From: Bacteroidia bacterium
Lineage (GTDB): Bacteria > Bacteroidota > Bacteroidia > AKYH767-A > OLB10
DNA: 64,000 nt
Assembly: GCA_016788165.1 (NCBI GenBank)
Contig: JAEUTH010000021.1
Location: 153,046 to 217,045, forward strand
Direction: 5' to 3'
The position numbers and the translations under genes are program-made. Positions 3,770-39,682 of this stretch are shown piece by piece; positions within the stretch are counted from its first letter, which is position 1, and each line of letters starts with the position of its first letter. The notes under the pieces are model-generated. The model made no database searches. It worked only from the letters and a program-made list of their open reading frames with translations, and was not told the origin of the DNA.

Positions 3770-4150
3770 ATGCAAAATCCATTTATTCGTTTTATACTAA
3801 CGACTATTAAGGGTGGTGTTTTTTTACTGCTTCCTGTATTTGCAATAATTTATGGAGTTTTAAAAGTAGCAGATACGATAAGGCCAATAACCGAACCCAT
3901 AATTTTATATTTTGGTTTTGAGCTAACATTTGGTCCGTTTACACAACAAATTTTTGCCTTACTGATATTGTTTCTCTTATGTTTTATTGCCGGGTTGTTG
4001 CTGCATTTAAAGTTTTTCAAAACATTAAACATTAAAATAGACAGCTTCATAAACCAGCTCATCCCATCATATGGCGCTATGAAAAGCAAGGTTGATAATG
4101 AGCTAAAGCGTTTTAATAGCGATGATAATAAAAACGCAAACCAAACTTAA
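3770..4150 (+). CDS. small polytopic membrane protein (DUF502-like N-terminus, short)
   Basis: 126 aa with two or three hydrophobic helices. The 3' end overlaps the convergent 4147-5370 gene by 4 nt. Family assignment is weak. Confidence 0.3.
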   Translation: MQNPFIRFILTTIKGGVFLLLPVFAIIYGVLKVADTIRPITEPIILYFGFELTFGPFTQQIFALLILFLLCFIAGLLLHLKFFKTLNIKIDSFINQLIPSYGAMKSKVDNELKRFNSDDNKNANQT

Positions 4151-5370
4151 TCACAATTGGTTAGGCTAAAAACGTGTTTCAAGATAGCGGCTTCATCAGT
4201 ATCAAAATTTAATCCCCTACGTTGATACACACGTTGTGCAAGTTCAACTGCATCTTCGATACGAAATACTTCGCCATTACCGGGCTGGCCCCATGTAAAG
4301 CTGGGTATGTGTTTGGGCGGAAACCCCTGTGTAAAAATGTTGGCGGCTACGCCTACTACAGTACCTGTATTAAACTGTGTGTTAATAGCACATTTACTGT
4401 GATCGCCCATGGTTAATCCACAAAATTGCAAACCGGTATCAATGTAATTTTGTTCGAGGTAATCAAACACCTTAATGTTGCTATAATTATTTTTTAAATT
4501 GCTGCAATTGGTATCAGCACCCAAATTGCACCATTGTCCAATAACAGCATTGCCTATATATCCATCATGTGCCTTATTACTATTTGCCATAAAAATGCTG
4601 TTGTTTACTTCGCCACCCACTTTGCAATAATTGCCAACCGTAGTTGCGCCATAAATTTTGGTTCCCATTTTAAGTTGTGCATTATCGCCTAAAGCAAATG
4701 GACCTCTAATCATACATCCTTCCATTACCAAAGCATTTTTGCCAATATAAATGGGGCCGGTACTGCCATTTAAGGTTGATACCAATACTTGGGCATCTTC
4801 TTCAATAAAAATATTTTCAAGACCAATTAACTTATTGGGGGCATATATAGGTTGCGATTTTCTGCCTGCAGTAAGCAAAGCAAAATCAGCTTTAATAGCC
4901 CAATCGTTATAAGTAAAAAAATGCCAACACCTTTCTAAAACAGTTGCTTCCTGCACTTGTAATTGTTCCTTTTTGTTCAATAAAAACCGGTAATCAACAA
5001 TCTCATCCCGGCTGGCACCGGTAGCCAATACAACATCGTTATAAACCAATTGCTGATTAACGCTTAACGAGGCAATGGCATCACATAAAAATGGTGTTGG
5101 TAGTAAAGCCGCATTTATAACAACATTATCCGATTCGGTATGCAATGGATATTTGTTTTCTAAGTATTGTGGCGTTAAATAACTCATGTTTGCCGCCAAC
5201 ATATGTTCCCATTTTTCTTTAAGGGTAAGTATGCCAATTCGTAAATCGGATACAGGTCGCATAAAGGTTAACGGTTTTAATTGCTCATGGTAAATACCAT
5301 CATAGAGTATAAAGTTCACTTTTTTTTGCTGCCAATGTAATATATAGCTTTTAATACAACCTTCGAGCAA
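4147..5370 (-). CDS. putative sugar-nucleotidyltransferase with C-terminal left-handed beta-helix (GlmU-like)
   Basis: 407 aa. The C-terminal half is rich in hexapeptide-like repeats (IGNAVIGQWCNLGADTNCSNLKNN...). The N-terminal half is nucleotidyltransferase-like. Confidence 0.5.
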   Translation of the reverse strand: MLEGCIKSYILHWQQKKVNFILYDGIYHEQLKPLTFMRPVSDLRIGILTLKEKWEHMLAANMSYLTPQYLENKYPLHTESDNVVINAALLPTPFLCDAIASLSVNQQLVYNDVVLATGASRDEIVDYRFLLNKKEQLQVQEATVLERCWHFFTYNDWAIKADFALLTAGRKSQPIYAPNKLIGLENIFIEEDAQVLVSTLNGSTGPIYIGKNALVMEGCMIRGPFALGDNAQLKMGTKIYGATTVGNYCKVGGEVNNSIFMANSNKAHDGYIGNAVIGQWCNLGADTNCSNLKNNYSNIKVFDYLEQNYIDTGLQFCGLTMGDHSKCAINTQFNTGTVVGVAANIFTQGFPPKHIPSFTWGQPGNGEVFRIEDAVELAQRVYQRRGLNFDTDEAAILKHVFSLTNCD

Positions 5371-9400: not shown

Positions 9401-10543
9401 ATGAAAGTATATTTAGATAATGCTGCCACTACACCTGTGCATCCGGATGTAGTGGCAACCATGGTTCCATTATTACAAAATGGATTTGGCAATCCATCAT
9501 CTATACATGCCTTTGGGCGCGAAATACGCTCCACCATTGAACAGGCGCGTAAAAAAATTGCGCAGTTAATTAACTGCAGTCCGGGCGAATTGTTTTTTAC
9601 TTCAGGCGGTACCGAAGCTAATAATATGGCAATCAGGTGTTCCATCGAACAGTTGCATATTAAGCATGCAATTACATCGCCAACCGAACATCATGCTGTA
9701 TTGCATACGCTCGAAGATTTAGCACATCAGGGCAAAATAAAACTGAGTTTGGTAAAAGTGGATGCTCAGGGCAATGTGGATTTGAATCATTTAGACGAAC
9801 TGTTACAAAATAACGAACGCAGTTTGGTATCGCTAATGCATGCAAACAATGAACTGGGTGTAGTGTTACCAATTGAAGCGGTAGGCCAAATTTGTAAGAG
9901 GTATGATGCATTATTTCATAGTGATACGGTGCAAACCATGGGGCATTATCCTTTTGATATGAAACAGTTGCAGGTTCATTTTATTAATTGTGCAGCACAT
10001 AAATTTCACGGCCCAAAAGGCGTAGGTTTTATATACATTAACAGTGCAATTAAAATTGCACCATTTATTACCGGAGGCTCGCAGGAACGAAATATGCGAG
10101 GCGGTACCGAAAATGTGTATGGCATAGCCGGATTGGCTAAAGCTTTAGAGTTGGCCTTCGCTGATATGGAATCAGACACTACCTATATACGTAGTTTAAA
10201 AGATTATATGCAAAGTAAATTAGTAGAAACCATACCTGGTATTAAATTTAATGGCGATATAAGTGCCAATAGTTTATATACGGTTCTTAATGTTTCGTTT
10301 CCCCCGGCCGACTTTGCCGAAATGATGTTATTTAATCTCGATATCAAAGGCATAGCAGCATCGGGTGGAAGCGCCTGTTCATCGGGTAGTAATGTAGGAT
10401 CGCATGTATTAGGTGCAATTGGAGTTGACCCTTCACGTCCTTGTGTTCGCTTTTCATTCAGTAAATTAAATACCAAAGCAGAAATTGACTATACCATCGA
10501 AGTTTTAAAAGGACTTTATAAGAATCAATCGGCAACTGCCTGA
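9401..10543 (+). CDS. cysteine desulfurase (class V aminotransferase, NifS/IscS-like)
   Basis: 380 aa with a PLP-binding region (SAHKFHGPKGVG) and active-site Cys loop (ASGGSACSSG). Confidence 0.85.
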   Translation: MKVYLDNAATTPVHPDVVATMVPLLQNGFGNPSSIHAFGREIRSTIEQARKKIAQLINCSPGELFFTSGGTEANNMAIRCSIEQLHIKHAITSPTEHHAVLHTLEDLAHQGKIKLSLVKVDAQGNVDLNHLDELLQNNERSLVSLMHANNELGVVLPIEAVGQICKRYDALFHSDTVQTMGHYPFDMKQLQVHFINCAAHKFHGPKGVGFIYINSAIKIAPFITGGSQERNMRGGTENVYGIAGLAKALELAFADMESDTTYIRSLKDYMQSKLVETIPGIKFNGDISANSLYTVLNVSFPPADFAEMMLFNLDIKGIAASGGSACSSGSNVGSHVLGAIGVDPSRPCVRFSFSKLNTKAEIDYTIEVLKGLYKNQSATA

Positions 10544-11983: not shown

Positions 11984-12883
11984 TTACTTGGATCGCGGGT
12001 GAAACTGCATAATAGTTTCGCGTAAAAATGTGCGATTTAAGTGTGTATATATTTCGGTGGTGGTAATGCTTTCATGCCCTAACATTTCCTGTACAGCGCG
12101 TAAATCGGCACCACCTTCAACCAAATGCGTTGCAAACGAATGCCGGAATGTATGTGGCGAAATTTTTTTTGTAATACCTGTTTTTATTGCCAGTGCTTTT
12201 ATAATATTAAATATCATGATGCGGCTTATTTTTTTGCCCCCTCTGTTAAGAAACAGATAGTCAGAATGGCTTGTAGCAATTGTTTGATGATTGCGTGTTT
12301 TTTCAAAATAATTTTTTAATTGTCTGATAGCAATTTGTCCGATAGGTACCAGCCGTTCTTTATTGCCCTTGCCTATAACTTTAATAAATCCAATTTCGAA
12401 ATAAATGTCGGATATTTTAAGTGAAACCAGTTCGCTAACCCGCAAGCCGCAACTATATAAGGTTTCTATAATAGCCTTATTACGTTCGCCATCAGGTTTG
12501 CTCAGGTCAATTACAGCCAATATTGTTTCTATTTCATCTACCGATAATACATCAGGCAATTTACGGCCAAGCTTGGGCGATTGTAATAAGCGCGTAGGGT
12601 TTTTTTGGATGATATTTTCTACCATCAAATATTTATAAAAAGCTTTGATGCCGGAAATAATACGTGCTTGCGAATGTGCACTCATGCCTAAGCTATGTAT
12701 CCAAGCAATAAAATCCTGTAAATGAGAAAGGGTTATCTGCTCGGGCGGGATATTAATTTCTTTAAAATTTAAAAATTGTAACAACTTATTTAAATCATCG
12801 GCATAGGCCTCTAATGTATTTTTCGAAAGCGACCTTTCTAATAACAAGTAGGACTCGAAACCTTTTATATATGACTGCCACAT
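11984..12883 (-). CDS. xerD: site-specific tyrosine recombinase XerD
   Basis: 299 aa. Phage-integrase N-terminal SAM-like domain plus a catalytic domain with the R...HxxR...Y pattern (HTFRHSFATHL ... EIYTH). Confidence 0.85.
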   Translation of the reverse strand: MWQSYIKGFESYLLLERSLSKNTLEAYADDLNKLLQFLNFKEINIPPEQITLSHLQDFIAWIHSLGMSAHSQARIISGIKAFYKYLMVENIIQKNPTRLLQSPKLGRKLPDVLSVDEIETILAVIDLSKPDGERNKAIIETLYSCGLRVSELVSLKISDIYFEIGFIKVIGKGNKERLVPIGQIAIRQLKNYFEKTRNHQTIATSHSDYLFLNRGGKKISRIMIFNIIKALAIKTGITKKISPHTFRHSFATHLVEGGADLRAVQEMLGHESITTTEIYTHLNRTFLRETIMQFHPRSK

Positions 12884-13507: not shown

Positions 13508-14602
13508 CTATTTTGCTTTTTGAATTGCTGATTGGCCTGCTTTAAATGCAAAGTAAAAAAACACGGATAGCAGTATAATAAAATAACCACCAAACAATAA
13601 GGTAAACTCCCAACTCCAGGTTATAATATAACGTTTAATGTAGGTAATCAGAAAAATACTGTTTGCACTTATGCCTGCAAAAATATAAGCAACCTGGCGG
13701 TCGGATAAACCTAAGTAAGCCAGGCTATGTGTTGTATGATCGCGGCCACCAACAAAAGGTGATTGCCCACGCGACACGCGATTAACTACAACTACAGTTG
13801 TATCAATTATAGGAACAATGAAAGCAATTAATGGAATTATAAATTGTTTGCTTAAAACAACAGCAGCATTAGGGGCATAATAATCGTTCCAAAAATACAT
13901 TATACCCATTGACGACAAAAACACACCTAGGAACTGGCTGCCTGTATCGCCCATATACATTTTTGAAGGATGCCAGTTAAAAAATAAAAATCCGGTTAAC
14001 GAAGCAAGTACACCCACTAAAACTATGAGGTGAATATTATTGTAATCATGTTCCATAAACACCATTACGATAATAATTAATAAAATAAACAGCGATACCA
14101 TGGTTGTAATACCATCCATATTATCTAACATATTAATGCTATTCATAATACCCACAACCCATAACACAGTTAAAAAATAATTTAGCCAATTGCTTTCAAA
14201 AACATGGATATAAATGCCACTATAAATAAGCACAATTGCGCATAAAAACTGAACCGAAAATTTTAATAAAGGTCTTGTATTGTAAGCATCATCGGCTAAG
14301 CCTACTAAAAAGCCTAAGGCCATACTTAACAATAACCCCACAAATTTTACATTATAATTTGAACCGGTTTCTTCAGGCGTAAAAAAAACGGCATAGCTGG
14401 CTACCGAAGCCAAAAATAAAATGTAAAATGAAATACCACCAATGGCAGGTTTTGATGTGCTGCTCCATCTGATAATTTCACCACCACTGTTTTTAGTACC
14501 TAAGGTGCTCGAAAATTTTAAAAACAAACGATTTATCAGGAACGAAAACAACGTACAAAAAACAAAGTACGTTCCATACAAAATAATGTAATGACTATTC
14601 AA
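13508..14602 (-). CDS. undecaprenyl-phosphate sugar-1-phosphate transferase (GT4 MraY/WecA family)
   Basis: 364 aa polytopic protein with the NMxDNMDGIT motif of the MraY/WecA polyprenyl-phosphate N-acetylhexosamine-1-P transferases. Confidence 0.8.
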   Translation of the reverse strand: MNSHYIILYGTYFVFCTLFSFLINRLFLKFSSTLGTKNSGGEIIRWSSTSKPAIGGISFYILFLASVASYAVFFTPEETGSNYNVKFVGLLLSMALGFLVGLADDAYNTRPLLKFSVQFLCAIVLIYSGIYIHVFESNWLNYFLTVLWVVGIMNSINMLDNMDGITTMVSLFILLIIIVMVFMEHDYNNIHLIVLVGVLASLTGFLFFNWHPSKMYMGDTGSQFLGVFLSSMGIMYFWNDYYAPNAAVVLSKQFIIPLIAFIVPIIDTTVVVVNRVSRGQSPFVGGRDHTTHSLAYLGLSDRQVAYIFAGISANSIFLITYIKRYIITWSWEFTLLFGGYFIILLSVFFYFAFKAGQSAIQKAK

Positions 14603-14619: not shown

Positions 14620-15186
14620 TTATTTAAATAAATTAACGGTGTTTAATATACACGGCAATATTAAATCCTTTTCCGATACAATGGGCTTTGCTACAGGCCA
14701 TTGTATATTCAATTTCGAGTCGGCATAATTAATACCACTCTCGGCTTCTTTATGCCAGTAATTACTGCATTTATATTGAAACACGGTATCATCAGTCAGC
14801 GATAAGAAACCATGCGCAAAACCTTGAGGGATATAAAGCATCAATTTATTAGCAGCATTTAACTCAATGGCAAAATGCTTACCATAAGTAGCCGAACTTT
14901 TTCTGATATCAACAACAACATCTAAAACAGCACCATTTACAACTCTAATTAATTTAGCCTGGCCAAATGGTGGGTTTTGAAAATGCAAACCTCTGATAAC
15001 ATGTTTTGAACTTACAGATTCATTGTCTTGCACAAACACTTCATCTACACCATCCAACGCTGCTTCTTTCGCATTAAAACTTTCGAAAAAATGGCCCCGG
15101 CTATCAGTAAATATTTTAGGGGTTATTAATAGTAATCCTGCCAAAGGCAGTTTTTTAAATTGGGCCATAACTAAATTTGTATGCAT
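14620..15186 (-). CDS. rfbC: dTDP-4-dehydrorhamnose 3,5-epimerase
   Basis: 188 aa cupin with the RmlC signature (VIRGLHFQ, QGFAHGF). Confidence 0.85.
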   Translation of the reverse strand: MHTNLVMAQFKKLPLAGLLLITPKIFTDSRGHFFESFNAKEAALDGVDEVFVQDNESVSSKHVIRGLHFQNPPFGQAKLIRVVNGAVLDVVVDIRKSSATYGKHFAIELNAANKLMLYIPQGFAHGFLSLTDDTVFQYKCSNYWHKEAESGINYADSKLNIQWPVAKPIVSEKDLILPCILNTVNLFK

Positions 15187-15252: not shown

Positions 15253-15690
15253 TTGCTTTTTTACATTAGCGGCATGGAACAGCATCAATTTGAAATGCCA
15301 CACTTAATTAAATTTAATAAATGGGGCGAAAGTGCAATTGGTTACATCTCTGTTACCCAAAACAATGAATTGCCATTTATTGTAAAGCGTGTATTTTGGA
15401 CTTATTACACACCTGAAAGCATTGTAAGAGGCCGTCACGCACATTTTAAAACCGAACAAATTTTAATTGCTGTAAGCGGCCGGATAATTGTGAATACAGA
15501 AAATGCCTCAGGCAAAATAAATCAATTTGTATTAGAAAGCCCCGATGTGGGTGTTTATCTGCCACCCAATGTGTGGCATACCATGCAATACTCACATGCT
15601 GCCGTTCAAATGGTTTTGGCCAGTACCGATTTTAATGAAAATGATTATATCAGAAATCATAATGAGTTTAAAAAAATATGGGGCAGCTAG
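15253..15690 (+). CDS. FdtA/WxcM-like sugar 3,4-ketoisomerase (cupin)
   Basis: 145 aa with a WxcM-like C-terminal domain pattern (RGRHAH.K.EQ..I...G). Overlaps the next gene by 13 nt. Confidence 0.7.
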   Translation: MLFYISGMEQHQFEMPHLIKFNKWGESAIGYISVTQNNELPFIVKRVFWTYYTPESIVRGRHAHFKTEQILIAVSGRIIVNTENASGKINQFVLESPDVGVYLPPNVWHTMQYSHAAVQMVLASTDFNENDYIRNHNEFKKIWGS

Positions 15691-16271
15691 CATCTTATTT
15701 TAAACACCCACATGCTTTGGTAGAAACCGAAAGTATTGGCGAAGGTACCAGAATATGGGCCTTTGTTCATATTTTAAATGGCGTTAACATTGGTGAAAAT
15801 TGTAACATTTGCGACCATTGTTTTATCGAGTCGCAAGTAAGCATCGGAAATAATGTTACCATAAAAAGTGGTATTTATATTTGGGCCGGTACTACTATTG
15901 AGGATGATGTGTTTTTAGGTCCAAACGTAGTTTTTACCAACGATATAAGGCCACGCAGTAAACAGTTTTTGCAAAACCCTGTTCCAACACTCGTACAAAA
16001 AGGAGCTTCAATTGGTGCAAACTCAACCATATTAGCAGGCATTACAATAGGTAAGTATGCCATGTGTGGTATTGGTAGTGTAGTTACACGCGATGTTAAG
16101 AATTATGCTTTAGTATTTGGTAACCCTGCCAGGCAACAAGGTTGGGTAAACGAACGTGGCGAAAAATTACAACAACGTACGGCATCGTTATGGGAAAGTA
16201 CTAATGGTGACATTTATAAGGAAACTTCAGAAGGTTTAAAACCACATAAAAAACAAAAAAATAAATTTTGA
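15678..16271 (+). CDS. FdtC-like hexapeptide-repeat N-acetyltransferase
   Basis: 197 aa left-handed beta-helix acyltransferase with multiple [LIV]GxxxxI hexapeptides. Overlaps the next gene by 4 nt. Confidence 0.7.
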   Translation: MGQLASYFKHPHALVETESIGEGTRIWAFVHILNGVNIGENCNICDHCFIESQVSIGNNVTIKSGIYIWAGTTIEDDVFLGPNVVFTNDIRPRSKQFLQNPVPTLVQKGASIGANSTILAGITIGKYAMCGIGSVVTRDVKNYALVFGNPARQQGWVNERGEKLQQRTASLWESTNGDIYKETSEGLKPHKKQKNKF

Positions 16272-17197
16272 CCACGCTTTCAGTTATTGTACCATTTTAT
16301 TTTAATCAGGCTAATGTGCAGGTTACTACGGATACATTGTTCGAGAACGAAAAACTATTTGAGCCCGATTTAAAGTTTCAATATATTTTTATTGATGATG
16401 GAAGCAAAGATGATACGCTTCAACTCTTAAAACAAGTGAAGCAAAATAGTAGCCGGCAAATAGTAATTATAAAACTTGCAGGCAACTTTGGTTCGTATAA
16501 TGCCATACTTGCCGGGATGCAATATGCAACCGGTGATTGTAACGTGGTTATTACTTCCGACCTGCAGGACCCGCCACCATTAATTTTAAAAATGTATAAC
16601 TACTGGCAACAAGGGTTTAAATTGGTTTTGGCTAACCGTAACAAACGAAACGATTCATTTATTACCAATTTTTTTGCTAACACTTATCATAAGCTCATTA
16701 AAAAATTTGCTTCAATTAATTTGCCAGATGGTGGATTTGATTTTTGCTTATTTGATAAACAACTACGTCAACAAGTAGTTGATATGGATGAGAAAAACAC
16801 CAACTCATTGTATTTATTAGTTTGGCTTAAATACGATTACATAAGCATTGCCTACACAAGGCAAGAGCGTAAGCTGGGCAAAAGCCGCTGGACGTTAAAT
16901 AAAAAAATTAAGCTTTTTATTGATTCGTTTGTGTCGTTCAGTTATTTGCCCTTGCGACTTATTACTGTTGGTGGTTTAATTATGGGCATATGTGCATTTA
17001 TGTATGCTTGCTATGTGCTGTTTGCAAAACTTACGGGCATGGTACATGTTGAAGGATGGAGTGCATTAATGGTAGTTTTTTTATTGGTATCCTCCTTTCA
17101 ATCAATTGCACTGGGCATTATTGGCGAATATTTATGGCGCAACCTGGAGCACAGTCGAAACAGACCTGCTTACGTAGTTGATGAGGTATATAAATAA
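16268..17197 (+). CDS. GT2 polyprenyl-phosphate glycosyltransferase (ArnC/GtrB/DPM1-like)
   Basis: 309 aa. GT-A N-terminal domain (VIVPFY..., DDGSKDDT, DxD-like DLQD) plus two C-terminal TM helices as in GtrB/ArnC. TTG start. Confidence 0.75.
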   Translation: MTTLSVIVPFYFNQANVQVTTDTLFENEKLFEPDLKFQYIFIDDGSKDDTLQLLKQVKQNSSRQIVIIKLAGNFGSYNAILAGMQYATGDCNVVITSDLQDPPPLILKMYNYWQQGFKLVLANRNKRNDSFITNFFANTYHKLIKKFASINLPDGGFDFCLFDKQLRQQVVDMDEKNTNSLYLLVWLKYDYISIAYTRQERKLGKSRWTLNKKIKLFIDSFVSFSYLPLRLITVGGLIMGICAFMYACYVLFAKLTGMVHVEGWSALMVVFLLVSSFQSIALGIIGEYLWRNLEHSRNRPAYVVDEVYK

Positions 17198-19055
17198 GAT
17201 GGATGCATTACATAATCAAATTGGCTGGGTATTTCTGATTTTGATTATAAGCATTTTTGTTTTGCTTGTAATAGGTCATGTGGTAAAAGCTTTATTAGGT
17301 TTAGCCTCTGCTGATAAAACCGGCTATTATGCATTACTAACAGGCACTGTTTTTTTTGTCCTTTTTTCAGCAACTATTTTAAGTTGTTCTAAAACCATAA
17401 TGTTAGGCTTCGTATTGATTTTTGTTTTTCTTAATAATAAACCTTATAAAATAAAATGGCCCTCAATAAATAATGTTTTGCATGTTGTAATTATTGCATC
17501 TGCTTTTTTTACTATTCAATATCTAACAATTTTTAACGGCAATGAGTTGCCGCTGTTGCCCGAAGGTGATGCATTGTATTATGCACGATTGGCAAGCAAA
17601 ATGGCCGAAACCGGAATTGAAAACACCAACCTGTATGGCAATGAAGGCAGGGAGCCCTATCATTATTTTGATTTGTGGATAACGGCTACGCTTATAAAAT
17701 TTACAAAGTTCAATCCTTACCTGATATTAAAGCTAATTGTATATCCTATTTTGCTTACAATTTTATATGCAGGTTATTTTTTATGGGCATGCAGTAAAAA
17801 TTTAAGTAAATTAAACTCGGCATTGTTGGCTTTGCTGCTGTGTTTCTTTTCAGGATTTTATCTGCTGGCTTTCGATAAAATTAATTATGTAAACGATAGC
17901 GTATTGTTTTTTTATAGCGCAATAACGTACCCCAAATTATTGGTTATATATATTTTTATTCAAGCTGCTTTTATAAGTTACATCAGTAAAAATAATTTCA
18001 ATGCCATAACCTGGTTAGCATGCTTGCCACTTTGTTTTATTACAGTTGTACCGGTTTATTCAGCTTTGTTGTGCATTTTAATATTGCTAATTGCATTAAA
18101 ACTTACCAGTGTTAAATGGCAACAAGTTTTACCTGCAGTTTTTATTGTTGTTTTTATATTGATATTTTATTTACTGCAACCGGTTTCTACTACTATAAAT
18201 GGTGATAAGATTAATTCAGTTGATTCTTTTTTCTCGCTGAAATATTTTGTAACAGCTTTCAATATTTTTTTAGTTACGGTTGCTCAGTTCGTTATTGCGT
18301 ACAGCATTTGGATTGTTATTGCTTTATGGCTTTTATATAAATGTGCAGATTCAGCGTTTAAACAAGCTACATTAATGTATTGTACGGGCTTTGCTTTTGC
18401 ATTGTTTATTTGGGCTGTGCTGCATCAGATTATGGATAGCGTGCAGTTGTTTTTTAATTTTATAATACCCGCAACTGCCATTTTTTGTTTTTATATTCTT
18501 TTACAAGTAATTGAGTATAAGAAAAAAGTATTTTTTGCAGTAGCTCTTTTGTTGTTAGGTTTTCGAGTGCTGCAGTTTTTTCATTTTAATGGCATAAAAA
18601 CAAATCCATACAGCAAAACCTATACAGATTACGTGAGCCGTCAAATTGATGGTAAAAACATGGTTGCTGCATCAATAATAAATGGAGTAAGTTACGACCG
18701 CATTTTTGCAAAAAACACACAGTTTAGGGTTAACGATGCATACCTTTATTATATCAATCCAACATATAAATGTCATGCTATATCGGTTATGGATGGTTAT
18801 AATGCTAAAGGAAATAAAGCGTTGGAGAAATTGTTTGTAGAGCAATCTGTATTTTATCAGTTTGTGCAACATCAAAAAGCAACGGGTGTTTTTCAGGATA
18901 TAGCACAAAGTCAGATTGATTTTATAAAAGAGAAAAAAATAAAACTTGTATTTGTAAACAAAGGCAGCTATGTAGCCGATTCAATTATTGCCTTAGCTGA
19001 TACTACTTTAACCGATACAGGGACAGGCGAAACTTTATTAATGTTATCCTATTAG
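17178..19055 (+). CDS. polytopic membrane protein, GT-C-like (ArnT/PMT-type) glycosyltransferase candidate
   Basis: 625 aa with at least 12 predicted TM helices followed by a roughly 150-aa soluble C-terminal domain. Start overlaps the GT2 stop; ATG at 17181 or 17199 is more likely than the TTG at 17178. Confidence 0.45.
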   Translation: MMRYINKMDALHNQIGWVFLILIISIFVLLVIGHVVKALLGLASADKTGYYALLTGTVFFVLFSATILSCSKTIMLGFVLIFVFLNNKPYKIKWPSINNVLHVVIIASAFFTIQYLTIFNGNELPLLPEGDALYYARLASKMAETGIENTNLYGNEGREPYHYFDLWITATLIKFTKFNPYLILKLIVYPILLTILYAGYFLWACSKNLSKLNSALLALLLCFFSGFYLLAFDKINYVNDSVLFFYSAITYPKLLVIYIFIQAAFISYISKNNFNAITWLACLPLCFITVVPVYSALLCILILLIALKLTSVKWQQVLPAVFIVVFILIFYLLQPVSTTINGDKINSVDSFFSLKYFVTAFNIFLVTVAQFVIAYSIWIVIALWLLYKCADSAFKQATLMYCTGFAFALFIWAVLHQIMDSVQLFFNFIIPATAIFCFYILLQVIEYKKKVFFAVALLLLGFRVLQFFHFNGIKTNPYSKTYTDYVSRQIDGKNMVAASIINGVSYDRIFAKNTQFRVNDAYLYYINPTYKCHAISVMDGYNAKGNKALEKLFVEQSVFYQFVQHQKATGVFQDIAQSQIDFIKEKKIKLVFVNKGSYVADSIIALADTTLTDTGTGETLLMLSY

Positions 19056-19057
19056 TT

Positions 19058-20125
19058 TTATGCAAATCGTTTACGAATAAAAATATTTAGCGGCTCCTCA
19101 ATCAGTTTAAAGCATATAATAGAAAGTACAGTTATCAAAACAAAACAGAGCCAAACGGGTAAACCCATTTTTAAAATAGCACTCATAAAAACGCCCATGT
19201 GCAGTAAATAAAAAGCATACGAGCTTTTGCCGAGTAATTGCACAAAAGGTACCGACAAAAATTTTTGTAAAAGTGTTTTTTCGAATATTAGTCCGTAAAA
19301 AAGCGGCACAATAGCAAACACCGGTAAAATCAAATTATTAATCAGAACACCTGCAGGATGATGTATTCCGGCAACATGATTGCCCTTAAAAATCGATATT
19401 AAATAAATACAAACTAAAAAGTTAAGTACACCAAGCAAACTGTAGTTAATTTTGAAACGAAATTTTATTTTTAAGTGAAGCATATAGGCTAATGCTATGC
19501 CGGCAAAAAATTCGAAACAACGACCCATAAAAGTATATATGGCCATAAAACCATAGCTACTCATAAAACTTTTACATCCGATGCTTTGCGAAGTTTTAAC
19601 GATGAGGCATCCCAGTATAAAAATTATAACAGGCAATACGACCATTGCAATTTTATTTTTTCGAATTGCTAAAAACCAAAGCGGTGCGGTTAAGTAAAAA
19701 ATTTCTTCAACCGTTAGTGACCATCCTTGCGCAATGCCTGTAAACTTTATATCGGCAAACAAACCCTTCAGAAAGGTAATGTTATAGAAGTATAAGTTTA
19801 AAAGCATTTTTGATGAAGGGCTTTGTATTCCAATCCATAAAAAGGTAATTGTAGTAAGAATAAAAAATAACGGATATATACGTGCGAACCGTCTAAAGAA
19901 GTATTTCTTAAAAGCTGTATTTGAATCGAACAAATATTTATGTGCAATTAAAAATCCACTTAGCACAAAAAACAACGTAACACCTGTATGAAATTCGTTT
20001 ACAATGCCCCACAATATTTCGCAACCTGCAATATCTTTAAATGGGTTGTAATGATGCAAAAACACCATGTATGCTGCTATGGCTCTTATACCGGTTAAAG
20101 CCTTAAAGAAATCCGGTTGTGCCAT
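19058..20125 (-). CDS. acyltransferase family 3 (OafA-like) membrane O-acyltransferase
   Basis: 355 aa with 10 TMs and an N-terminal AIAAYMVFLHH motif typical of acyltransferase-3. Confidence 0.75.
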   Translation of the reverse strand: MAQPDFFKALTGIRAIAAYMVFLHHYNPFKDIAGCEILWGIVNEFHTGVTLFFVLSGFLIAHKYLFDSNTAFKKYFFRRFARIYPLFFILTTITFLWIGIQSPSSKMLLNLYFYNITFLKGLFADIKFTGIAQGWSLTVEEIFYLTAPLWFLAIRKNKIAMVVLPVIIFILGCLIVKTSQSIGCKSFMSSYGFMAIYTFMGRCFEFFAGIALAYMLHLKIKFRFKINYSLLGVLNFLVCIYLISIFKGNHVAGIHHPAGVLINNLILPVFAIVPLFYGLIFEKTLLQKFLSVPFVQLLGKSSYAFYLLHMGVFMSAILKMGLPVWLCFVLITVLSIICFKLIEEPLNIFIRKRFA

Positions 20126-20171: not shown

Positions 20172-22610
20172 TTATAAGCCGATTGTTTTTAAAATCCGTT
20201 GAAAGATGTTGGGTTTATCATCTTCATCGTAATAACCATAACCATAGCCATATCCGTAGCCGTAGCCATATCCGTAACCATAGCCATAACCATAACTGCT
20301 TCCATATCCGTAACCGTATCCATAGCCATTTTTGCTGGTATCAACACCGTTAAGTATAACTGATAAGTGTTTTACTTTACTTTCGTCAAGTAGTTTATTT
20401 ATATTATGTATAAACATTTTTTTACTGTAACGGCTACGCAAAATATAAATAGGCAAATCAACTTTTTGAATTAAAGGAATACCATCGCTAACGATACCAA
20501 TAGGTGGTGTGTCAATTATTACAACATCATACGAAAGTTTTAATTCCTGAATTAAATCTTCCATACGCTGTGATATAATTAATTCGGCAGGGTTAGGGGG
20601 GATAGGGCCTGCTGTGATAAAATCCAAACCGGGTAAGGAGCTTTTTTGAATACAGTTTTTAACCGAGTCTTTGCCAATTAATATGGTACTCATGCCATGC
20701 AAATTTTCGACATTAAACCCTAAGTGGATTTTGGGTTTGCGCATGTCTAAATCTAATATAGCCACACGTTTACCGCTAAATGCAATTACGCCAGCCAGGT
20801 TAATTGCATTAAATGTTTTTCCTTCGCCTGAAATGGTACTTGTAACAGCAAATACTTTTGCTGTTTCATCATTTATTATAAACTGTAAATTAGTTCGTAC
20901 GCTTCTGAAAGCTTCAGATATTATAGATTTCGGGTTTTTGTCAACCAGCAATTGCGATACAGGTATCTCGCGTTTATATTTAGGTATCATACCCAACAAG
21001 GCAGCATCGGTATATAGACTAACTTCTTCTAACGAAGTTATTTCGTTATACATCAGATATCTGAAAATTATTAAACCTAAGCTTAAAAAAAAGCCCAATG
21101 TAATGCAGCCACTTAGTATAAGGGGCTTGTTAGGTGATATAGGCACAAAGCGTGGTATGGCCGGCTCAAGTATAATATTGTCAGAGTCGTAGCCTGCTTT
21201 AGTAATTGCAAACTCAGCTTTCTTTTCTAATAAGAGTGAGTAAAATTTTTCGTTTATTTTATTAATTCGGATAAGGCGTGCATACTCTGTTTGACGCGAT
21301 GGCAAAACAACCATGGTGCTATTATATTGCCCAAGTTGTTTATCAATTTGAGCCATGCGAAGGCGCAAACTTGATTCTTCATTTTTTATATGTGCATTTA
21401 AAATTTGCACCTGATTGGCAATAGCAGCTTCTATAAAACTATAATTAGGTGCGCTGGTAGTTACTTCGTTCAGTAGTTGTTCTTTGTCTTTTAATAGTTT
21501 TAGAAGCTCTGTAGTTGCTTCATTAATATTACCTTCTTTATAAACGCCACTAAGACTTATAAGCATGGTTGTTATATCACGCTTGGCTTTCATTTCTGAT
21601 TTTAATTTATCAATCAATGCCAGTTTGTATTCCAGGTCAAAGCGTAAGTCGTCAAACCTGCGCATTTCGCTGTTAAGCATATTACCATAATCATCCGGAT
21701 CGAAAAATTTATTTCTTCGTTTAAATTCTTCAATCGAATCTTCTGATAAAATCAAAGCATGTTGAATATTGCTAACGGTTGTATCAATAAAATTTAATAT
21801 CTTATTGGTAACTTCTGTATTCTTTTTTAAATCGTAGCCTATAAACTCAGTGGTTATAGCATTTACAATGTCTGCAGCTTTTGTAGGACTGTTGTCTTTT
21901 AACCGTACGTATAATGTTTTTGCATCAGAGTTTACAATACCAACCAATAGTGCTGATGCGTATTTGGCTGCTTCAACATCTAAATTATTTATCGTAAAGT
22001 AGTAGGCATCGTTTTTAAATGTTTTCTGCTGATCGAGAATGGTATTGTAACTGTTTAAAGTTATTTTTAAACGCAATTCGGGCAATTCAATCCACTTGTT
22101 TATGTTGTAATCGGCTGTTACTTTATTGCCGTTGAATGTATAACTTAAATTAAACTGGTCTTGCTTAATCCATTCAATGTAAAATGGCAACCCAAATATT
22201 GCTGAGTCTTTAATGTAGTATTGTACATTATAGGGTGCCGAGCGATAAAGTTCCTGATCGAGTACAGTACCTTTGGCATAATAGCTAATATCAACCGGTA
22301 GCCTAACCAAGGCTTGTTTGGCTAATATGCGACTACGGATAAGTTCCATATCGCCTGCCATTTGGTTGCGGCTTTCTTCGGCAAAGTAATTTTTATTGAT
22401 ATCAAATACACTGTTCGCTTTATTTTGATTGGCGAGCTTTATAATGGAGTTTGATTCGAAAACGGGTTGTGTATATCGTAAGTATATGAGTGCCGTTAGA
22501 GCCGACACAAACATAAACAGTATTACCCAAATGAAATTACCCCGGGCAATAGAAACAAAGAGTTTTAAATCGAAATCTTCGTTAAGACTGGTAATTTTTT
22601 TTTTGGGCAT
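20172..22610 (-). CDS. polysaccharide co-polymerase / tyrosine autokinase (Wzc-like BY-kinase)
   Basis: 812 aa. N-terminal Wzz-like periplasmic domain between two TMs, C-terminal CpsD-like P-loop ATPase (Walker A TSTISGEGKT, Walker B VIIDTPP). Ends in a Tyr cluster expanded to (GY)n. Confidence 0.85.
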   Translation of the reverse strand: MPKKKITSLNEDFDLKLFVSIARGNFIWVILFMFVSALTALIYLRYTQPVFESNSIIKLANQNKANSVFDINKNYFAEESRNQMAGDMELIRSRILAKQALVRLPVDISYYAKGTVLDQELYRSAPYNVQYYIKDSAIFGLPFYIEWIKQDQFNLSYTFNGNKVTADYNINKWIELPELRLKITLNSYNTILDQQKTFKNDAYYFTINNLDVEAAKYASALLVGIVNSDAKTLYVRLKDNSPTKAADIVNAITTEFIGYDLKKNTEVTNKILNFIDTTVSNIQHALILSEDSIEEFKRRNKFFDPDDYGNMLNSEMRRFDDLRFDLEYKLALIDKLKSEMKAKRDITTMLISLSGVYKEGNINEATTELLKLLKDKEQLLNEVTTSAPNYSFIEAAIANQVQILNAHIKNEESSLRLRMAQIDKQLGQYNSTMVVLPSRQTEYARLIRINKINEKFYSLLLEKKAEFAITKAGYDSDNIILEPAIPRFVPISPNKPLILSGCITLGFFLSLGLIIFRYLMYNEITSLEEVSLYTDAALLGMIPKYKREIPVSQLLVDKNPKSIISEAFRSVRTNLQFIINDETAKVFAVTSTISGEGKTFNAINLAGVIAFSGKRVAILDLDMRKPKIHLGFNVENLHGMSTILIGKDSVKNCIQKSSLPGLDFITAGPIPPNPAELIISQRMEDLIQELKLSYDVVIIDTPPIGIVSDGIPLIQKVDLPIYILRSRYSKKMFIHNINKLLDESKVKHLSVILNGVDTSKNGYGYGYGYGSSYGYGYGYGYGYGYGYGYGYGYYDEDDKPNIFQRILKTIGL
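20229..20327 (-). repeat. coding (GY)n dipeptide repeat, an imperfect hexanucleotide (GGNTAY)n tract
   Basis: + strand reads ...accataaccatagccatatccgtagccgtagccatatccgtaaccatagcc... Antisense translation is NGYGYGYGYGSSYGYGYGYGYGYGYGYGYGYGYY. Confidence 0.9.
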
Positions 22611-22612
22611 TC

Positions 22613-23380
22613 TTACAAGGTGCGTATAAATACAGCAACAACCACTACACTACTAATAATGGCCATAATAGGGGCCAGTTCTTTAAGTATGCCTTGCGAT
22701 ATTTGTGGTGTAGGTTCTACGTATATAATATCGTTAGCTTGTAATAGCAGGTTAGATTGTTTAAGTCCTTCAACCGTACTTAAATCAATTAGCATAATTT
22801 GCGGATTACGTGTATCGCCTCTAACCAATTTAATTTTATAAGCTTTACCTGTTTCGGTAACACCACCTGCCGCAGCTAAGGCTTCAATTAAGGTTGTGTT
22901 TTCGTTTTTTAAATTAACAACGGTACCTCTGCCACCTGTACCGGTAAATACCATAACGCGTCTGTTAATTACAGTTATTATACTAAATGGATTTTTATAA
23001 TAGATGGCATATTTTTCTTCTACTAATTTTTCAGCCTCCTGTTTGGTTAAGTCTTTAATTTTCACTTTTCCAATTTGTGGCAACCTAACATAACCTTCCA
23101 CATCAACTGTAAAGTTTATGGCATCGTTAACGGCATCGTTGGGTATGCGGGCTGCCGAAGTGGTAGTGGTAGTTGCCATCATGGGTTCTATTAATTTATA
23201 ACCATCATTGTTATAAATGCTGAATTCGATTATATCATTCGGGGCTATACGATATTCCAGATTACCTATGGTTTGATCAATAGAGTAGGGGTAATTTTTA
23301 GGGGTTTTAAACATTACACTGCTATTGATGTAACATCCACTACAAGATAGCATGGCAATAATAACAATTAACTTACGCAT
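22613..23380 (-). CDS. polysaccharide export outer-membrane protein (Wza/BexD family)
   Basis: 255 aa with a lipoprotein-type signal (LSCSGC), Poly_export and SLBB domains. Sits 2 nt upstream of wzc. Confidence 0.8.
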   Translation of the reverse strand: MRKLIVIIAMLSCSGCYINSSVMFKTPKNYPYSIDQTIGNLEYRIAPNDIIEFSIYNNDGYKLIEPMMATTTTTSAARIPNDAVNDAINFTVDVEGYVRLPQIGKVKIKDLTKQEAEKLVEEKYAIYYKNPFSIITVINRRVMVFTGTGGRGTVVNLKNENTTLIEALAAAGGVTETGKAYKIKLVRGDTRNPQIMLIDLSTVEGLKQSNLLLQANDIIYVEPTPQISQGILKELAPIMAIISSVVVVAVFIRTL

Positions 23381-23525
23381 ATAGTTTTACTAATAGAGGG
23401 GGTAAATGTATAAGAATTATATAAATGGTTCAGCAACAGATATAGATACAGATTGTAATAGCTAAAAAAAATATTTACTTTTTGTACTTCAATTTTTTAG
23501 TTGAAAATTAATATTGGTTAAAGCA

Positions 23526-24710
23526 TTATATGCCTAAAAGTTTGTCATACAATTGCGTCATATCGCTAACAAGCCTTGTATAATTAAATTGTGAATTAAC
23601 ATGGTTTAGGCCCCAATTGCTCATTTGATCCCGCAGCATATCGTCATTTACAAGCGTAATTAAATTTTGTGCAAAGGCATTTACATCGTTCGATGTCGAT
23701 AGTAGCGCTGATTTACCCGGTATAACCACATTTTCGATGCCACCCACCTGGGTTGATACGATTGCTTTTGAAGCTGCCTGTGCTTCGATTAAACTTACCG
23801 GTGTACCTTCATTTAATGAAGTTAATGCAACAATATCTAAACCCGCTAAGGCAATATCCACATCCTGAATCCAGGATGTAAAAGTTAAGTTTGCCTGGTT
23901 ATTGTATTGTGTGGGTGTATTAAAAACAAGGCCTTGGTTTTTACACATTTCTTCAATTTGCTGGCGCAATTCGCCATCGCCAATTATAAATGCATGAACA
24001 GGTTTTGTTACACTTTTTAAAAGGATGTGAAATGCTTTGATAAACAATTGATGGTTTTTTACCGGCACCAAACGACCAATTATGCCAATTGCTATTGTAT
24101 TGTTAAGTTTATGTTGTAGCCTGAATTGTTTTCGTTTTTCAGACATGTTATGTGTAAACCTGCTAAGGTCGAAACCTAATGGTATTATATATGTGTTTTG
24201 AGGTTTGCATACTTTATATGTTTCAGACAATTCTTTTTTCTGGACTTCGCTTAAAACCACAATACCATTTGTTTTAGCAGCTAAGTAACGTTCGATTTGT
24301 AAAAATAACTTAGTTGTAGTACTGCTAAAATACGAGTGAAAATAATGGCCATGAAATGTGTGTAGTATAACAGGTACTTTACAGTGCAAAGCTGCCAAAC
24401 GTCCAACGGTACCCGGTTTTGCCATGTGTGTATGCACAATGTCGGGTTTAAATTCTTTTATAATTTTTTTTATTTTTTGATAGGCCAGGTAATCGTCTTT
24501 GGGATTTATTGCCCTTTTCATTTCGGAGACATATACAGGTTTAAGATTGTATTTGTCTAAAATGAAATTTGAACTGGCCTCAGTATCGTCTATGGCTCCT
24601 GAAACTAATTGGGTTTCATAACGCGCATCCATAAATTTGGTTAAAAAAGCAACGTTGTATGTAGGCCCTCCTAAATTTAAACGGTTTATTATTCGAAGAA
24701 TGCGTGGCAT
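23526..24710 (-). CDS. glycosyltransferase family 4 (GT-B)
   Basis: 394 aa with a Glyco_trans_4 N-terminal domain and a Glycos_transf_1 C-terminal domain with the E...E pattern (TSLNEGTPVSLIEAQA). Confidence 0.8.
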   Translation of the reverse strand: MPRILRIINRLNLGGPTYNVAFLTKFMDARYETQLVSGAIDDTEASSNFILDKYNLKPVYVSEMKRAINPKDDYLAYQKIKKIIKEFKPDIVHTHMAKPGTVGRLAALHCKVPVILHTFHGHYFHSYFSSTTTKLFLQIERYLAAKTNGIVVLSEVQKKELSETYKVCKPQNTYIIPLGFDLSRFTHNMSEKRKQFRLQHKLNNTIAIGIIGRLVPVKNHQLFIKAFHILLKSVTKPVHAFIIGDGELRQQIEEMCKNQGLVFNTPTQYNNQANLTFTSWIQDVDIALAGLDIVALTSLNEGTPVSLIEAQAASKAIVSTQVGGIENVVIPGKSALLSTSNDVNAFAQNLITLVNDDMLRDQMSNWGLNHVNSQFNYTRLVSDMTQLYDKLLGI

Positions 24711-27093: not shown

Positions 27094-28557
27094 TTACCGA
27101 GGTACATCAAACGACTCTTGACTTTGGTTGCCTATATATTGCCTGCGTTTTTCTACATCATAATCTAACGACTGCGAATTGCGTTTGTGTAAATCCATAC
27201 TCCAGTTGTTATTCATCACTTCGCCATTCATATCGGAATGCAGTAAACGATAATCGTTACCTGCTAAGTTTGGATTGTAGAATACGAATTTGCGATTGGT
27301 TTGGTTTTTTATTTTGTAGTACTGCCATATTTCGTAAGGGTAGGCATCGGGTTCGTGGTCGCGTTTGGTAACAGAGTTTGGTGCACCATATTGTAAGTAA
27401 ACACGGCCGCGTTCAGTAGTGTATCCTTTTGTAAATCTATCGCCATAAATTTGATGTACCAAGGCAACCTGTGCTTTGTAATCTAACCAAGCTTTTTCCG
27501 GTGCTGTTGGATTTTTCTTAAACCAGAAATCATAAAAAAATTGTTGCATCATACGTAAATCAGCCAGTTTCAGCTGGTTGTCTTGCCATACGGTTTGTGT
27601 TGGGTTGCATATAGGTCGCAGGCATGCAACAAACTCCTTTAATGTATCGGCATCGGTTATTGCATTTACAAAAGTTTGTGCAACATCAATATTACTAATT
27701 GCTATGTCGCTATTTGCAGGTGCAATAAAATTACTTCTTTGTATGTATCGTTCTGTAAAACCAATAAGCTCATTGTTTTTATTTCTCAATTCAATAATCA
27801 GATTATAATTACCGGAAGCTAATTTTTCGATATTAATTTCACTCATTAATATGGTGGTTGGCTTGGCAATTTCGCGTTTGGTTACTTTGTACTCGTCTAA
27901 AATTATTTTGCTTTCGTCATTAATTAGGTAGTATGATAATACATATCCATTATTGCTGCCTAATACCTTGTCAGCATTATAAATTTCGGCATAAAATATT
28001 AAGCTATTCATGCTTTTTGGATAAAAATTATCGGTATAGGGCATCATGTCATAACCATTTTTAGTGATGGCAGTTTCTGTTGTAGCCGGCTTATAGCTTT
28101 CTAACAGGGTTATATCAGATGTTGATATTCTATCAGAAAGCCAGCTTAAGTTTATGGATGAGGTGGAAGCAAACGATTGCCCATTGCCATTTTTATCGGC
28201 CAGAGTAAATACCATCTGATACTTACCCGGGTTTAGTTTAATGCGTTGCTGATCTATAAAATTAAAATTGATTTGTGTTGTATCATTAACAACAGGGCTG
28301 TTTAAGTTGTAGGTGTCGGTAAAAACCTGTTGGCCTGTACTGTCTTTAATTACAATGTTGATATTGATTACTGCCATATAACCATTGGCTTCGGGTTTAA
28401 AAACTACAGAGTTGCCATCAACAGTTAAATAGGTTTCGATATATGCACCGTTTGTAGTACTATTGAAACGACTGAACGAAAACAAAGCTTTCACGTTTTT
28501 TGCATCTGCCAAATGCATGCATATACACAATAAAATTACTGATATGAATGTTTTCAT
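27094..28557 (-). CDS. GWxTD-like domain secreted protein
   Basis: 487 aa with a signal peptide. The C-terminal region KGYTTERGRVYLQYGAPNSV resembles the GWxTD motif. Confidence 0.45.
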   Translation of the reverse strand: MKTFISVILLCICMHLADAKNVKALFSFSRFNSTTNGAYIETYLTVDGNSVVFKPEANGYMAVININIVIKDSTGQQVFTDTYNLNSPVVNDTTQINFNFIDQQRIKLNPGKYQMVFTLADKNGNGQSFASTSSINLSWLSDRISTSDITLLESYKPATTETAITKNGYDMMPYTDNFYPKSMNSLIFYAEIYNADKVLGSNNGYVLSYYLINDESKIILDEYKVTKREIAKPTTILMSEINIEKLASGNYNLIIELRNKNNELIGFTERYIQRSNFIAPANSDIAISNIDVAQTFVNAITDADTLKEFVACLRPICNPTQTVWQDNQLKLADLRMMQQFFYDFWFKKNPTAPEKAWLDYKAQVALVHQIYGDRFTKGYTTERGRVYLQYGAPNSVTKRDHEPDAYPYEIWQYYKIKNQTNRKFVFYNPNLAGNDYRLLHSDMNGEVMNNNWSMDLHKRNSQSLDYDVEKRRQYIGNQSQESFDVPR

Positions 28558-39500: not shown

Positions 39501-39682
39501 ATTTTATAGAATGATTTCAAAAAACTTTGCTTGCAAATAAACAATGCTACTTGGTATTTGTTATCAAAAAATATTTTTGTTTCAGCACAAACTTTTAAAA
39601 TATGCACCAACATATAAGTGAAAAAAAGAAAAGGGCGGTTAACTATGTAACTGCCCTTTAATTAAAAATGAAAAAGGATTAT

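Follow-up and report, generated by a model that had tools for sequence, protein, structure and literature searches.

The question raised by this 64,000-nucleotide (nt) stretch of DNA from a Bacteroidia bacterium (contig JAEUTH010000021.1, forward strand; hereafter the window, numbered from its first letter) is what four contiguous genes on its + strand accomplish together. They encode an FdtA-like ketoisomerase, an FdtC-like N-acetyltransferase, a GT2 glycosyltransferase, and a membrane protein of 625 amino acids (aa), and a preliminary description of the sequence had suggested that they decorate a periplasmic acceptor with an amino sugar carried on undecaprenyl phosphate (Und-P). Our analysis supports that Und-P-linked reading and adds a conserved gene neighborhood to its evidence, the acceptor and the activities being predictions. 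It is somewhat probable, in our judgment, that the operon supplies the sugar-specific part of a three-component system of the Gtr/Arn kind for glycosylation outside the cytoplasm, which would place its sugar as a side branch on a surface polysaccharide.

The four genes and their predicted products

The four open reading frames (ORFs) lie on the + strand where the preliminary description had placed them (Table 1). The fdtA- and fdtC-like genes share 13 nt (15678–15690) and the fdtC-like and GT2 genes share 4 nt (TTGA, 16268–16271), both as described. The third overlap, given as about 20 nt, depends on the start codon: a 20-nt overlap exists only with TTG 17178 as the start of the fourth gene, whereas the NCBI product of this gene (P0001) has 618 aa and hence begins at ATG 17199, which sits 1 nt after the GT2 stop codon TAA (17195–17197). 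The four genes are contiguous with either start, and a terminator scan found no terminator-like sites on the + strand within the operon. A scan for sigma-70 promoters and terminators showed no enrichment, and it is ill suited to Bacteroidota promoters.

The product of the first gene scored 120.5 bits against the FdtA family PF05523 in Pfam (E 5e-35), above the curated threshold of 23, and its top PDB match was FdtA 2PA7 (E 6e-24). The His-x-His motif is kept, with RGRHAH aligned on RGFHAH of 2PA7, and we take it to correspond to the catalytic pair His49/His51 of A. thermoaerophilus FdtA. In the next two PDB sequences by rank, the first His is replaced by Asn (RGFNAH), and their scores are lower. 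The protein is thus predicted to be a cupin-type, FdtA-like dTDP-6-deoxy-hex-4-ulose 3,4-ketoisomerase, in agreement with the earlier assignment. QdtA 4ZU7 matched more weakly (1.6e-17) than FdtA 2PA7, a comparison of scores that does not settle the C4 configuration; both the galacto (Fuc3N, Fdt) and the gluco (Qui3N, Qdt) form of the sugar are possible.

The second product matched Hexapep (E 5e-20, Pfam), and its closest PDB match was the "N-acetyltransferase" 7S43/7S3U (2e-51), with FdtD 4MZU (5e-49), WlbB 3MQG (5e-41), and QdtC 3FS8 (3e-21) as further matches. These proteins, of which FdtD 4MZU is bifunctional, belong to a group that N-acetylates nucleotide-linked 3-amino sugars. The PDB alignments begin at query residues 7–10, so that the left-handed beta-helix (LbH) starts near the N terminus. 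Orthologues at two related loci, L006 and L008, are 62–68% identical, and both stand beside a QdtB-type aminotransferase gene. The FdtC-type hexapeptide acetyltransferase of the preliminary description therefore reappears here as a predicted LbH sugar N-acetyltransferase of the FdtC/FdtD/WlbB/QdtC type.

The third product is predicted to be a full-length GtrB/ArnC/PgfS-type enzyme whose GT-A domain lies in the cytoplasm and is followed by two C-terminal transmembrane (TM) helices. It matched Glycos_transf_2 (PF00535) in Pfam with E 2e-25, and its top NCBIfam match was PgfS (4e-58, full length), with ArnC PRK10714 likewise matched over the full length (1e-39). The alignment with GtrB 5EKP runs end to end (1e-52, residues 3–307 on 27–329), and ArnC was matched at 2e-31, with 27% identity to E. 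coli ArnC (6e-40). The two C-terminal TM segments that had been noted before were placed by hydropathy at residues ~234–252 and ~267–285, inside these full-length alignments. A GT2 without polyprenyl-phosphate transferase architecture, which the preliminary description had named as contrary to its reading, is therefore not what was found. The active-site residues of GtrB are D94-x-D96, R122, D157, and R200 (PMC4728340); in GT2, D98, R124, D158, and R201 stand at the positions of D96, R122, D157, and R200.

The 625-aa protein matched no Pfam or NCBIfam family, and it is therefore structure prediction that establishes its GT-C architecture. It has ~13 hydrophobic helices and a C-terminal alpha/beta domain (residues ~480–625), and the prediction yielded a high-confidence GT-C model whose top structural matches are GT-C transferases, including ALG12, AftA, and ArnT. 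AglB, AftD, Pmt4, ALG3, ALG9, STT3B, ALG6, AftB, Pmt2, PimE, PglB, Pmt1, and DPY19 were matched as well, and Foldseek agrees with these results. Most of the GT-C structural matches use polyprenyl-monophosphate sugars (e.g., ALG12, AftA, ArnT, and Pmt4). The exception among the transferases, at rank 12, was the GPI-transamidase subunit Gab1, which also has a GT-C-like fold. A viral fold library gave no match to the model at E ≤ 0.001. The protein thus confidently models as a GT-C-fold glycosyltransferase. A polytopic membrane protein in a polysaccharide locus without a recognizable Wzy or Wzx gene might also be thought a Wzy polymerase or WaaL-type ligase, and the cluster would then be a locus for ordinary assembly of repeat units, but neither Wzy nor WaaL occurs among the structural matches. 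That identity, which the preliminary description had itself named as contrary to its reading, is rejected on fold evidence, and we regard the explanation built on it as extremely improbable.

No corresponding relationship was seen at the level of sequence. A PDB profile search with the family of the 625-aa protein found no GT-C protein and returned only designed TM helices (E ~0.03), and a Pfam scan of 63 family members gave scattered single chance matches, none reproducible, with no PMT or PMT_2 match at E ≤ 0.1. An hhalign comparison gave the family a probability of 1.1% against E. coli ArnT and of 0.2% against the PMT_2-type protein of another Bacteroidota locus (L048). Membership in the ArnT/PMT_2 (GT83/GT39) families is accordingly ruled out at the sequence-profile level. 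The sole hhalign alignment with ArnT places D131 opposite the "PDETRY" segment of that protein, a suggestive match that lacks significance. The GT-C assignment of the preliminary description thus stands in the predicted structure, whereas the comparison with PMT_2/ArnT in Pfam that it had proposed gave no match.

Word-indexed searches returned three and then seven relatives of the 625-aa protein, and an exhaustive HMMER search returned 1,309 cluster representatives (clusters at 50% identity), 248 of them at E ≤ 1e-30. Nearly all of the 150 matches listed are 590–680 aa long and aligned over their full length. D131 and E148 are invariant in the 63 sequences, and P160, Y161, H162, Y163, W167, K253, Y331, and Q423 are nearly so; D131, E148, and the PYHY motif are carried by one loop. 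Hydropathy and the positive-inside rule place loop 119–162, with D131 and E148, in the periplasm, as it follows a TM helix preceded by a Lys-rich loop, and they place the C-terminal domain there too. Judging from this conservation, D131 and E148 are likely catalytic or donor-binding residues.

Conserved neighborhood and the probable acceptor of the sugar

Related loci were collected with one motif from a 10-sequence alignment, so that the taxonomic range may be understated and the all-Bacteroidota result may be biased: all 31 loci of the 625-aa family from species-representative genomes belong to this phylum (Chitinophagaceae, Cytophagales, Saprospiraceae, Hymenobacter, Flavobacteriaceae, and Parabacteroides). 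A GT2 of 290–345 aa with C-terminal TM segments lies ≤5 kb from the family member, usually on the same strand, in 21 of 33 independent loci; in another two the GT2 is split or truncated. DegT genes occur at 19 of the 33 loci. They are of two kinds, QdtB-like (3FRK, 7e-119) and WecE-like (4PIW, 8e-123), and between GT2 and DegT there are formyltransferase, LbH acyltransferase, or methyltransferase genes. WbqC occurs in some loci, and a gene for a small EamA-type membrane protein occurs in some (e.g., L001 and L015). This neighborhood of GT2, DegT, and N-acyl genes indicates that the 625-aa family is habitually coupled to an Und-P-sugar synthase and to the synthesis of dTDP-derived N-acyl-amino-6-deoxyhexoses.

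L008 is syntenic with the window, in the order WecA (71% identity)–RmlC (62%), FdtA–FdtC–GT2–QdtB-like DegT–GT-C, and Wzc–Wza, with identities of 74% for FdtA, 68% for FdtC, 77% for GT2 over the C-terminal part, 29% for GT-C, 64% for Wzc, and 72% for Wza. The position that DegT holds in L008, between GT2 and GT-C, is empty in the window, where 1 nt separates the stop codon of GT2 from the start of GT-C. The L008 GT2 orthologue is itself split (L008:7879–8808) into ORFs of 105 aa and 139 aa with ~190 nt between them, to be explained by a frameshift or pseudogene or else by faulty assembly. In L006 the order is GT2 (60%)–GT-C–FdtA–FdtA–LbH (62%)–DegT. L039 holds the closest relative of the GT-C protein (P0002, 53%) and shows the same DegT-less junction and a convergent Acyl_transf_3 gene, with GT2 84% and the acyltransferase 64% identical; the DegT-less arrangement is therefore a conserved variant and not a one-off deletion.

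A different Bacteroidota organism has a comparable module in L048:4275–11107, with PMT_2 on the − strand and FdtA–FdtA–GNAT–methyltransferase–unknown–GT2 (308 aa)–QdtB-like DegT. As its GT-C protein is of the PMT_2 (ArnT-like) type, one donor logic has been combined with GT-C proteins from no fewer than two unrelated sequence families. Large proteins with no or weak Pfam matches were also seen in O-antigen-type clusters of the family, at L006:12470–14251 (593 aa, weak DUF2298 match), L006:5583–7070 (495 aa), and L003:14559–16061 (500 aa), and they may be further uncharacterized membrane glycosyltransferases or polymerases.

We consider a variable surface polysaccharide to be the likeliest acceptor. 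Support for this comes from the position of the locus between WecA/RmlC and Wzc/Wza/GT4 and from the presence of relatives in Wzt-type O-antigen clusters. It comes as well from the rapid divergence of GT-C at a syntenic site, as in GtrC and WxcO (PMC7685785, PMC13133917): the GT-C of L008 and L009 is 28–29% identical to that of the window between Wzc (64%) and Wza (71–72%), and across genomes the syntenic-site GT-C is 28–43% identical with Wzc and Wza 64–85% identical. The same divergence bears on an Arn-like modification of lipid A or of the lipopolysaccharide (LPS) core, in which GT-C would play the part of ArnT, FlmK, or LgmB in Bacteroidota and the acceptor would be a lipid A phosphate or a core sugar, since a conserved acceptor should keep its transferase conserved. 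Moreover, no ArnD-, NaxD-, or LgmC-type deacylase is encoded in the window, and an N-acetylated sugar gains no positive charge, so that a charge modification of lipid A is unlikely. The loci lie within Wzc/Wza or Wzt polysaccharide clusters, and there is no sequence-level PMT_2/GT83 membership. Overall, we consider the lipid A explanation unlikely.

Protein is a second candidate acceptor. If the locus served periplasmic O-glycosylation in the manner of PMT, PgfS/PgfM, or the Bacteroidota O-glycan, the amino sugar would be placed on Ser/Thr of secreted proteins or on a protein-linked glycan, and it is in keeping with this that PgfS, the best NCBIfam match of GT2, is the Und-P-sugar synthase of streptococcal protein glycosylation and that Pmt1, Pmt2, Pmt4, and DPY19 are among the structural matches of GT-C. 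However, the PMT matches rank below ALG12, AftA, and ArnT. No glycoprotein or type IX secretion system (T9SS) cargo genes are linked at the locus, the steady neighbors being WecA, RmlC, Wzc/Wza, and Wzt, and we judge protein glycosylation to be very unlikely.

From the observed gene order, family and fold assignments, conserved residues, and conserved neighborhood, we infer a pathway toward a polysaccharide side branch in which the enzymatic activities, the exact sugar, the in-trans amination, the flippase, and the acceptor are all predicted. FdtA would convert dTDP-4-keto-6-deoxyglucose to the 3-keto sugar, a QdtB/FdtB-type aminotransferase encoded outside the locus would aminate it at C3, and the LbH enzyme would N-acetylate the amine to give dTDP-Fuc3NAc or dTDP-Qui3NAc. 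The GtrB/ArnC-like GT2 would then load the sugar onto Und-P at the cytoplasmic face, and a putative flippase would take the Und-P-sugar across the membrane. Finally, the 625-aa GT-C would add one sugar residue, as a side branch, to a surface polysaccharide that is linked to Und-PP (O-antigen, capsule, or exopolysaccharide (EPS)) and made with the neighboring WecA, GT4, Wzc, and Wza machinery, and the adjacent Acyl_transf_3 may O-acylate the same glycan.

Missing genes and the flanks of the operon

Several observations weigh against the proposed pathway, among them the genes that the locus lacks. No DegT (FdtB/QdtB) gene was found in the window, either by tblastn with two DegT queries (E ≤ 1) or by Pfam in scanned ORFs of ≥120 aa, and none was found in ~10 kb past each window end, so that nothing DegT-like is present in ~82 kb of contig. 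Lacking an aminotransferase, the acetyltransferase would be left without a substrate. Neither RmlA (NTP_transferase-type) nor RmlB was found in the scanned ORFs of the window and ~10 kb on each side, and the same absence holds for a GtrA-type flippase, as the preliminary description had stated for the window. More broadly, there is no flippase gene (GtrA, SMR/EamA, or MATE) nearby and no genuine small multi-TM ORF in the window, and tblastn of the window with the EamA-type gene of L001 gave no match. The window also has no Wzx or Wzy gene that would define the acceptor pathway. Among the related loci, five with full flanks have no nearby polyprenyl-phosphate GT2. The GT-C fold is predicted, not solved.

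The donor specificity of GT2 raises a further doubt, as the first Asp of the GtrB DxD motif (D94) is Thr96 in GT2 (16550–16575, residues 96–98, ITSDLQDPP). A T/A/S/Y-x-D variant is found in the window and in four related GT2s (L006, L030, L036, and L038) at loci with Fdt-type genes (QdtB-like DegT, FdtA, or FdtC-like), and D-x-D is kept by most other GT2s in the set, including all WecE- and methyltransferase-linked ones. On sequence grounds, the first-Asp variant may be the mark of a subgroup with another nucleotide-sugar specificity. To our knowledge, the use of a dTDP-sugar donor by a GtrB-type enzyme has not been shown biochemically. We give an even chance to the more general proposal that the 625-aa family is a large unclassified GT-C family of fast-evolving, serotype-determining transferases in Bacteroidota, which would pass Und-P-borne, dTDP-derived N-acyl-amino-6-deoxyhexoses (3-amino sugars of the Fdt/Qdt type or 4-amino sugars of the WecE type) to surface glycans, with partner GT2s that use dTDP donors and with Thr/Ala-x-Asp as the possible mark of a subgroup.

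The missing FdtB is a real gap, as the syntenic L008 has FdtB/QdtB inside its operon. Neither a search started from the QdtB-like protein of L008 nor the ten close DegT clusters that were checked led to a protein traceable to this metagenome-assembled genome (MAG). Two DegT candidates were rejected as belonging to other organisms, their tetranucleotide correlation to the window being 0.86 versus 0.99 for same-genome pieces, and the Aminotran_5 gene at 9401..10543 was rejected as a substitute because it encodes a class-V enzyme in a housekeeping block and not a DegT-type sugar aminotransferase. It could be argued from the empty DegT position, the DegT-free contig, and the untraced clusters that FdtB was lost in this lineage, that no dTDP-3-amino sugar is made, and that the module is inactive or decaying, its genes being relics or re-purposed for another donor. 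On the other hand, the four ORFs are intact with their catalytic residues kept, and the DegT-less junction in a second genome, at 84% identity of GT2 and 53% of GT-C, indicates long persistence under selection. rmlC, the only rml gene in the window, is likewise apart from rmlA, rmlB, and rmlD, which are not in the window, and scattered dTDP-sugar genes are therefore the rule in this genome. We thus hold decay of the module to be unlikely, and the most economical reading, which we infer, is that an aminotransferase is supplied in trans to a working pathway.

The flanks, which the preliminary description had not covered, consist of divergent rmlC and WecA-like genes upstream and of Acyl_transf_3, Wzc, Wza, and GT4 genes downstream (Table 1). 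rmlC adjoins the operon, a position kept in L008, and RmlC and FdtA draw on the same intermediate, dTDP-4-keto-6-deoxyglucose. The WecA-like gene lies directly beyond rmlC, is syntenic in L008, and encodes an enzyme that likely initiates the acceptor glycan. The Acyl_transf_3 gene is absent at the syntenic L008 locus and probably belongs to the same variable cassette as GT-C. The Wzc–Wza–GT4 block (20172..24710, −) is the polysaccharide export context bounding the locus.

Table 1 Genes of the operon and of its flanks in the window
Feature	Position	Strand	Basis and remarks
fdtA-like gene	15253 (TTG) or 15274 (ATG)..15690	+	PF05523; likelier start ATG 15274
fdtC-like gene, LbH sugar N-acetyltransferase (predicted)	15678..16271	+	Hexapep and PDB matches
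GT2 polyprenyl-phosphate glycosyltransferase, GtrB/ArnC/PgfS type (predicted)	16268..17197	+	PF00535, PgfS, ArnC, and GtrB alignments
GT-C-fold membrane glycosyltransferase, unnamed family (625-aa protein; predicted)	17178..19055	+	Structure prediction; annotated start ATG 17199
rmlC, dTDP-4-dehydrorhamnose 3,5-epimerase	14620..15186	−	TIGR01221 E 8e-61 (above curated cutoff), PF00908 E 1e-66
WecA/MraY-family polyprenyl-phosphate HexNAc-1-phosphate transferase	13508..14602	−	PF00953 E 3e-29; TIGR02380 WecA E 1.4e-22, below curated cutoff
Acyl_transf_3 membrane acyltransferase	19058..20125	−	PF01757 E 1.5e-21; convergent, 2 nt from GT-C stop
Wzc tyrosine autokinase/co-polymerase	20172..22610	−	Pfam/NCBIfam
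Wza exporter	22613..23380	−	Pfam/NCBIfam
GT4 glycosyltransferase	23526..24710	−	Pfam/NCBIfam

The window belongs to a 339-kb contig of the MAG, which represents an uncultured bacterium, and its GC content is ~36%. The GT-C and Acyl_transf_3 segment (17178–20125) lies in the lowest-GC part of the central window (18001–20000, 0.323 versus a mean of ~0.36), and it is this segment that differs from the syntenic L008; the low GC and the difference are consistent with a swapped serotype cassette. Approximately 600 bp past the end of the WecA-like gene there is an XerC/XerD-type tyrosine recombinase gene (Phage_integrase E 9e-50, 11984–12883, −), with a type II dehydroquinase gene between it and the polysaccharide locus. 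A predicted sugar nucleotidyltransferase of 390–407 aa with NTP_transf_4 (E 1e-42) and LbH repeats is encoded ~10 kb upstream (4147–5370, −) and is not RmlA by Pfam. On the other side, a 487-aa protein (27094–28557, −) combines a GWxTD domain with a weak Wzt C-terminal (O-antigen-binding) match (E 3e-5, below cutoff).

Other features of the window were also recorded. A SusC/SusD/alpha-amylase polysaccharide-utilization locus (37944–44295, −) stands side by side with the gene for a 2,819-aa PKD/P_proprotein-repeat protein (44645–53104, +), and 61354–62190 encodes a separate protein of 278 aa that bears a T9SS sorting domain (Por_Secre_tail). Two small NUMOD4/HNH_3-type, homing-endonuclease-like genes lie ~80 kb apart on one contig, at 58849–59439 (−) of the window and at L040:21262–21801.

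Comparison with known systems

The closest parallel is wxc region 3 of Xanthomonas campestris pv. campestris (wxcK/L/M/N/O), to which the N-acetylfucosamine side branch of the O-antigen is attributed (PMC4878081, PMC13133917). Its genes encode an aminotransferase (wxcK), a GT2 (wxcL), a WxcM/FdtA-family protein (wxcM), a small membrane protein (wxcN), and a membrane protein (wxcO). In wxcK and in wxcN mutants the rhamnan O-antigen is without its N-acetylfucosamine branch (PMC4878081). WxcO is as low as ~26% identical between strains, whereas WxcK, WxcL, and WxcM are ~98–99% identical (PMC13133917). Both loci thus combine dTDP-amino-6-deoxyhexose genes, a GT2, and a large hypervariable membrane protein, a combination suited to the addition of a branch after polymerization. 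However, wxc region 3 is from Gammaproteobacteria and the present locus from Bacteroidota, isomerase and acetyltransferase are encoded here by two different genes, and the window has no equivalent of wxcK (aminotransferase) or wxcN (flippase-like).

Three-component periplasmic glycosylation is well described, and a GT-C without similarity to known families, from Citrobacter youngae, founded GT136 (PMC11127046). As in GtrA/GtrB/GtrC O-antigen glucosylation of Shigella, Salmonella, and E. coli prophages, an Und-P-sugar synthase is paired with a serotype-specific periplasmic GT-C (PMC11127046, PMC7685785). Unlike the Gtr systems, the locus has a predicted donor that is a dTDP-derived N-acetyl-amino-dideoxyhexose rather than UDP-Glc or phosphoribosyl pyrophosphate (PRPP), it has no GtrA, SMR, or MATE flippase gene, it is chromosomal within a polysaccharide locus and not part of a prophage, and its GT-C has no detectable sequence link to any Pfam or PDB GT-C family.

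The ArnBCADTEF pathway for lipid A aminoarabinose, with which Francisella FlmF2/FlmK and Bordetella LgmABC are grouped, differs further. The window shows no ArnT/PMT_2 sequence membership and no deformylase or deacetylase gene, the sugar would be a 6-deoxyhexose from the dTDP route, and the fast divergence of GT-C speaks against a lipid A acceptor. The Fdt and Qdt pathways, in turn, are known from the S-layer glycans of Aneurinibacillus and Thermoanaerobacterium and from E. coli O-antigens with Fuc3NAc or Qui3NAc. The window resembles them in the catalytic His pair kept in FdtA and in an acetyltransferase of the FdtC/FdtD/QdtC/WlbB group. In the classical pathways, cytoplasmic Leloir glycosyltransferases use the dTDP-sugar during repeat-unit assembly, and this has been described for E. 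coli (PMC7685785). Here, in contrast, the next gene is that of a polyprenyl-phosphate GT2 and then that of a GT-C, and FdtB is not at the locus.

Should the proposal be true, the 625-aa family would found a new CAZy family once characterized, and the partner GT2s would be the first of the GtrB type with a demonstrated use of dTDP-sugar donors. Widespread "hypothetical" membrane proteins of ~640 aa would gain a testable function and a predicted donor, and similar modules could be found by a neighborhood rule, namely a GtrB-like GT2 with a QdtB- or WecE-type aminotransferase, an N-acyl- or methyl-transferase, and a GT-C of the 625-aa family. This matters because phage susceptibility, immune recognition, and biofilm behavior of Bacteroidota from the environment and the gut are governed by surface glycans, whose side-branch chemistry is almost unannotated. 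The concept itself is not new: the mechanism is the established Gtr/Arn/Wxc logic, and no concept is overturned. What is distinct here is the large unnamed GT-C family, the systematic coupling to dTDP-amino sugars in Bacteroidota, the DxD variant of GT2, and a locus without aminotransferase or flippase.

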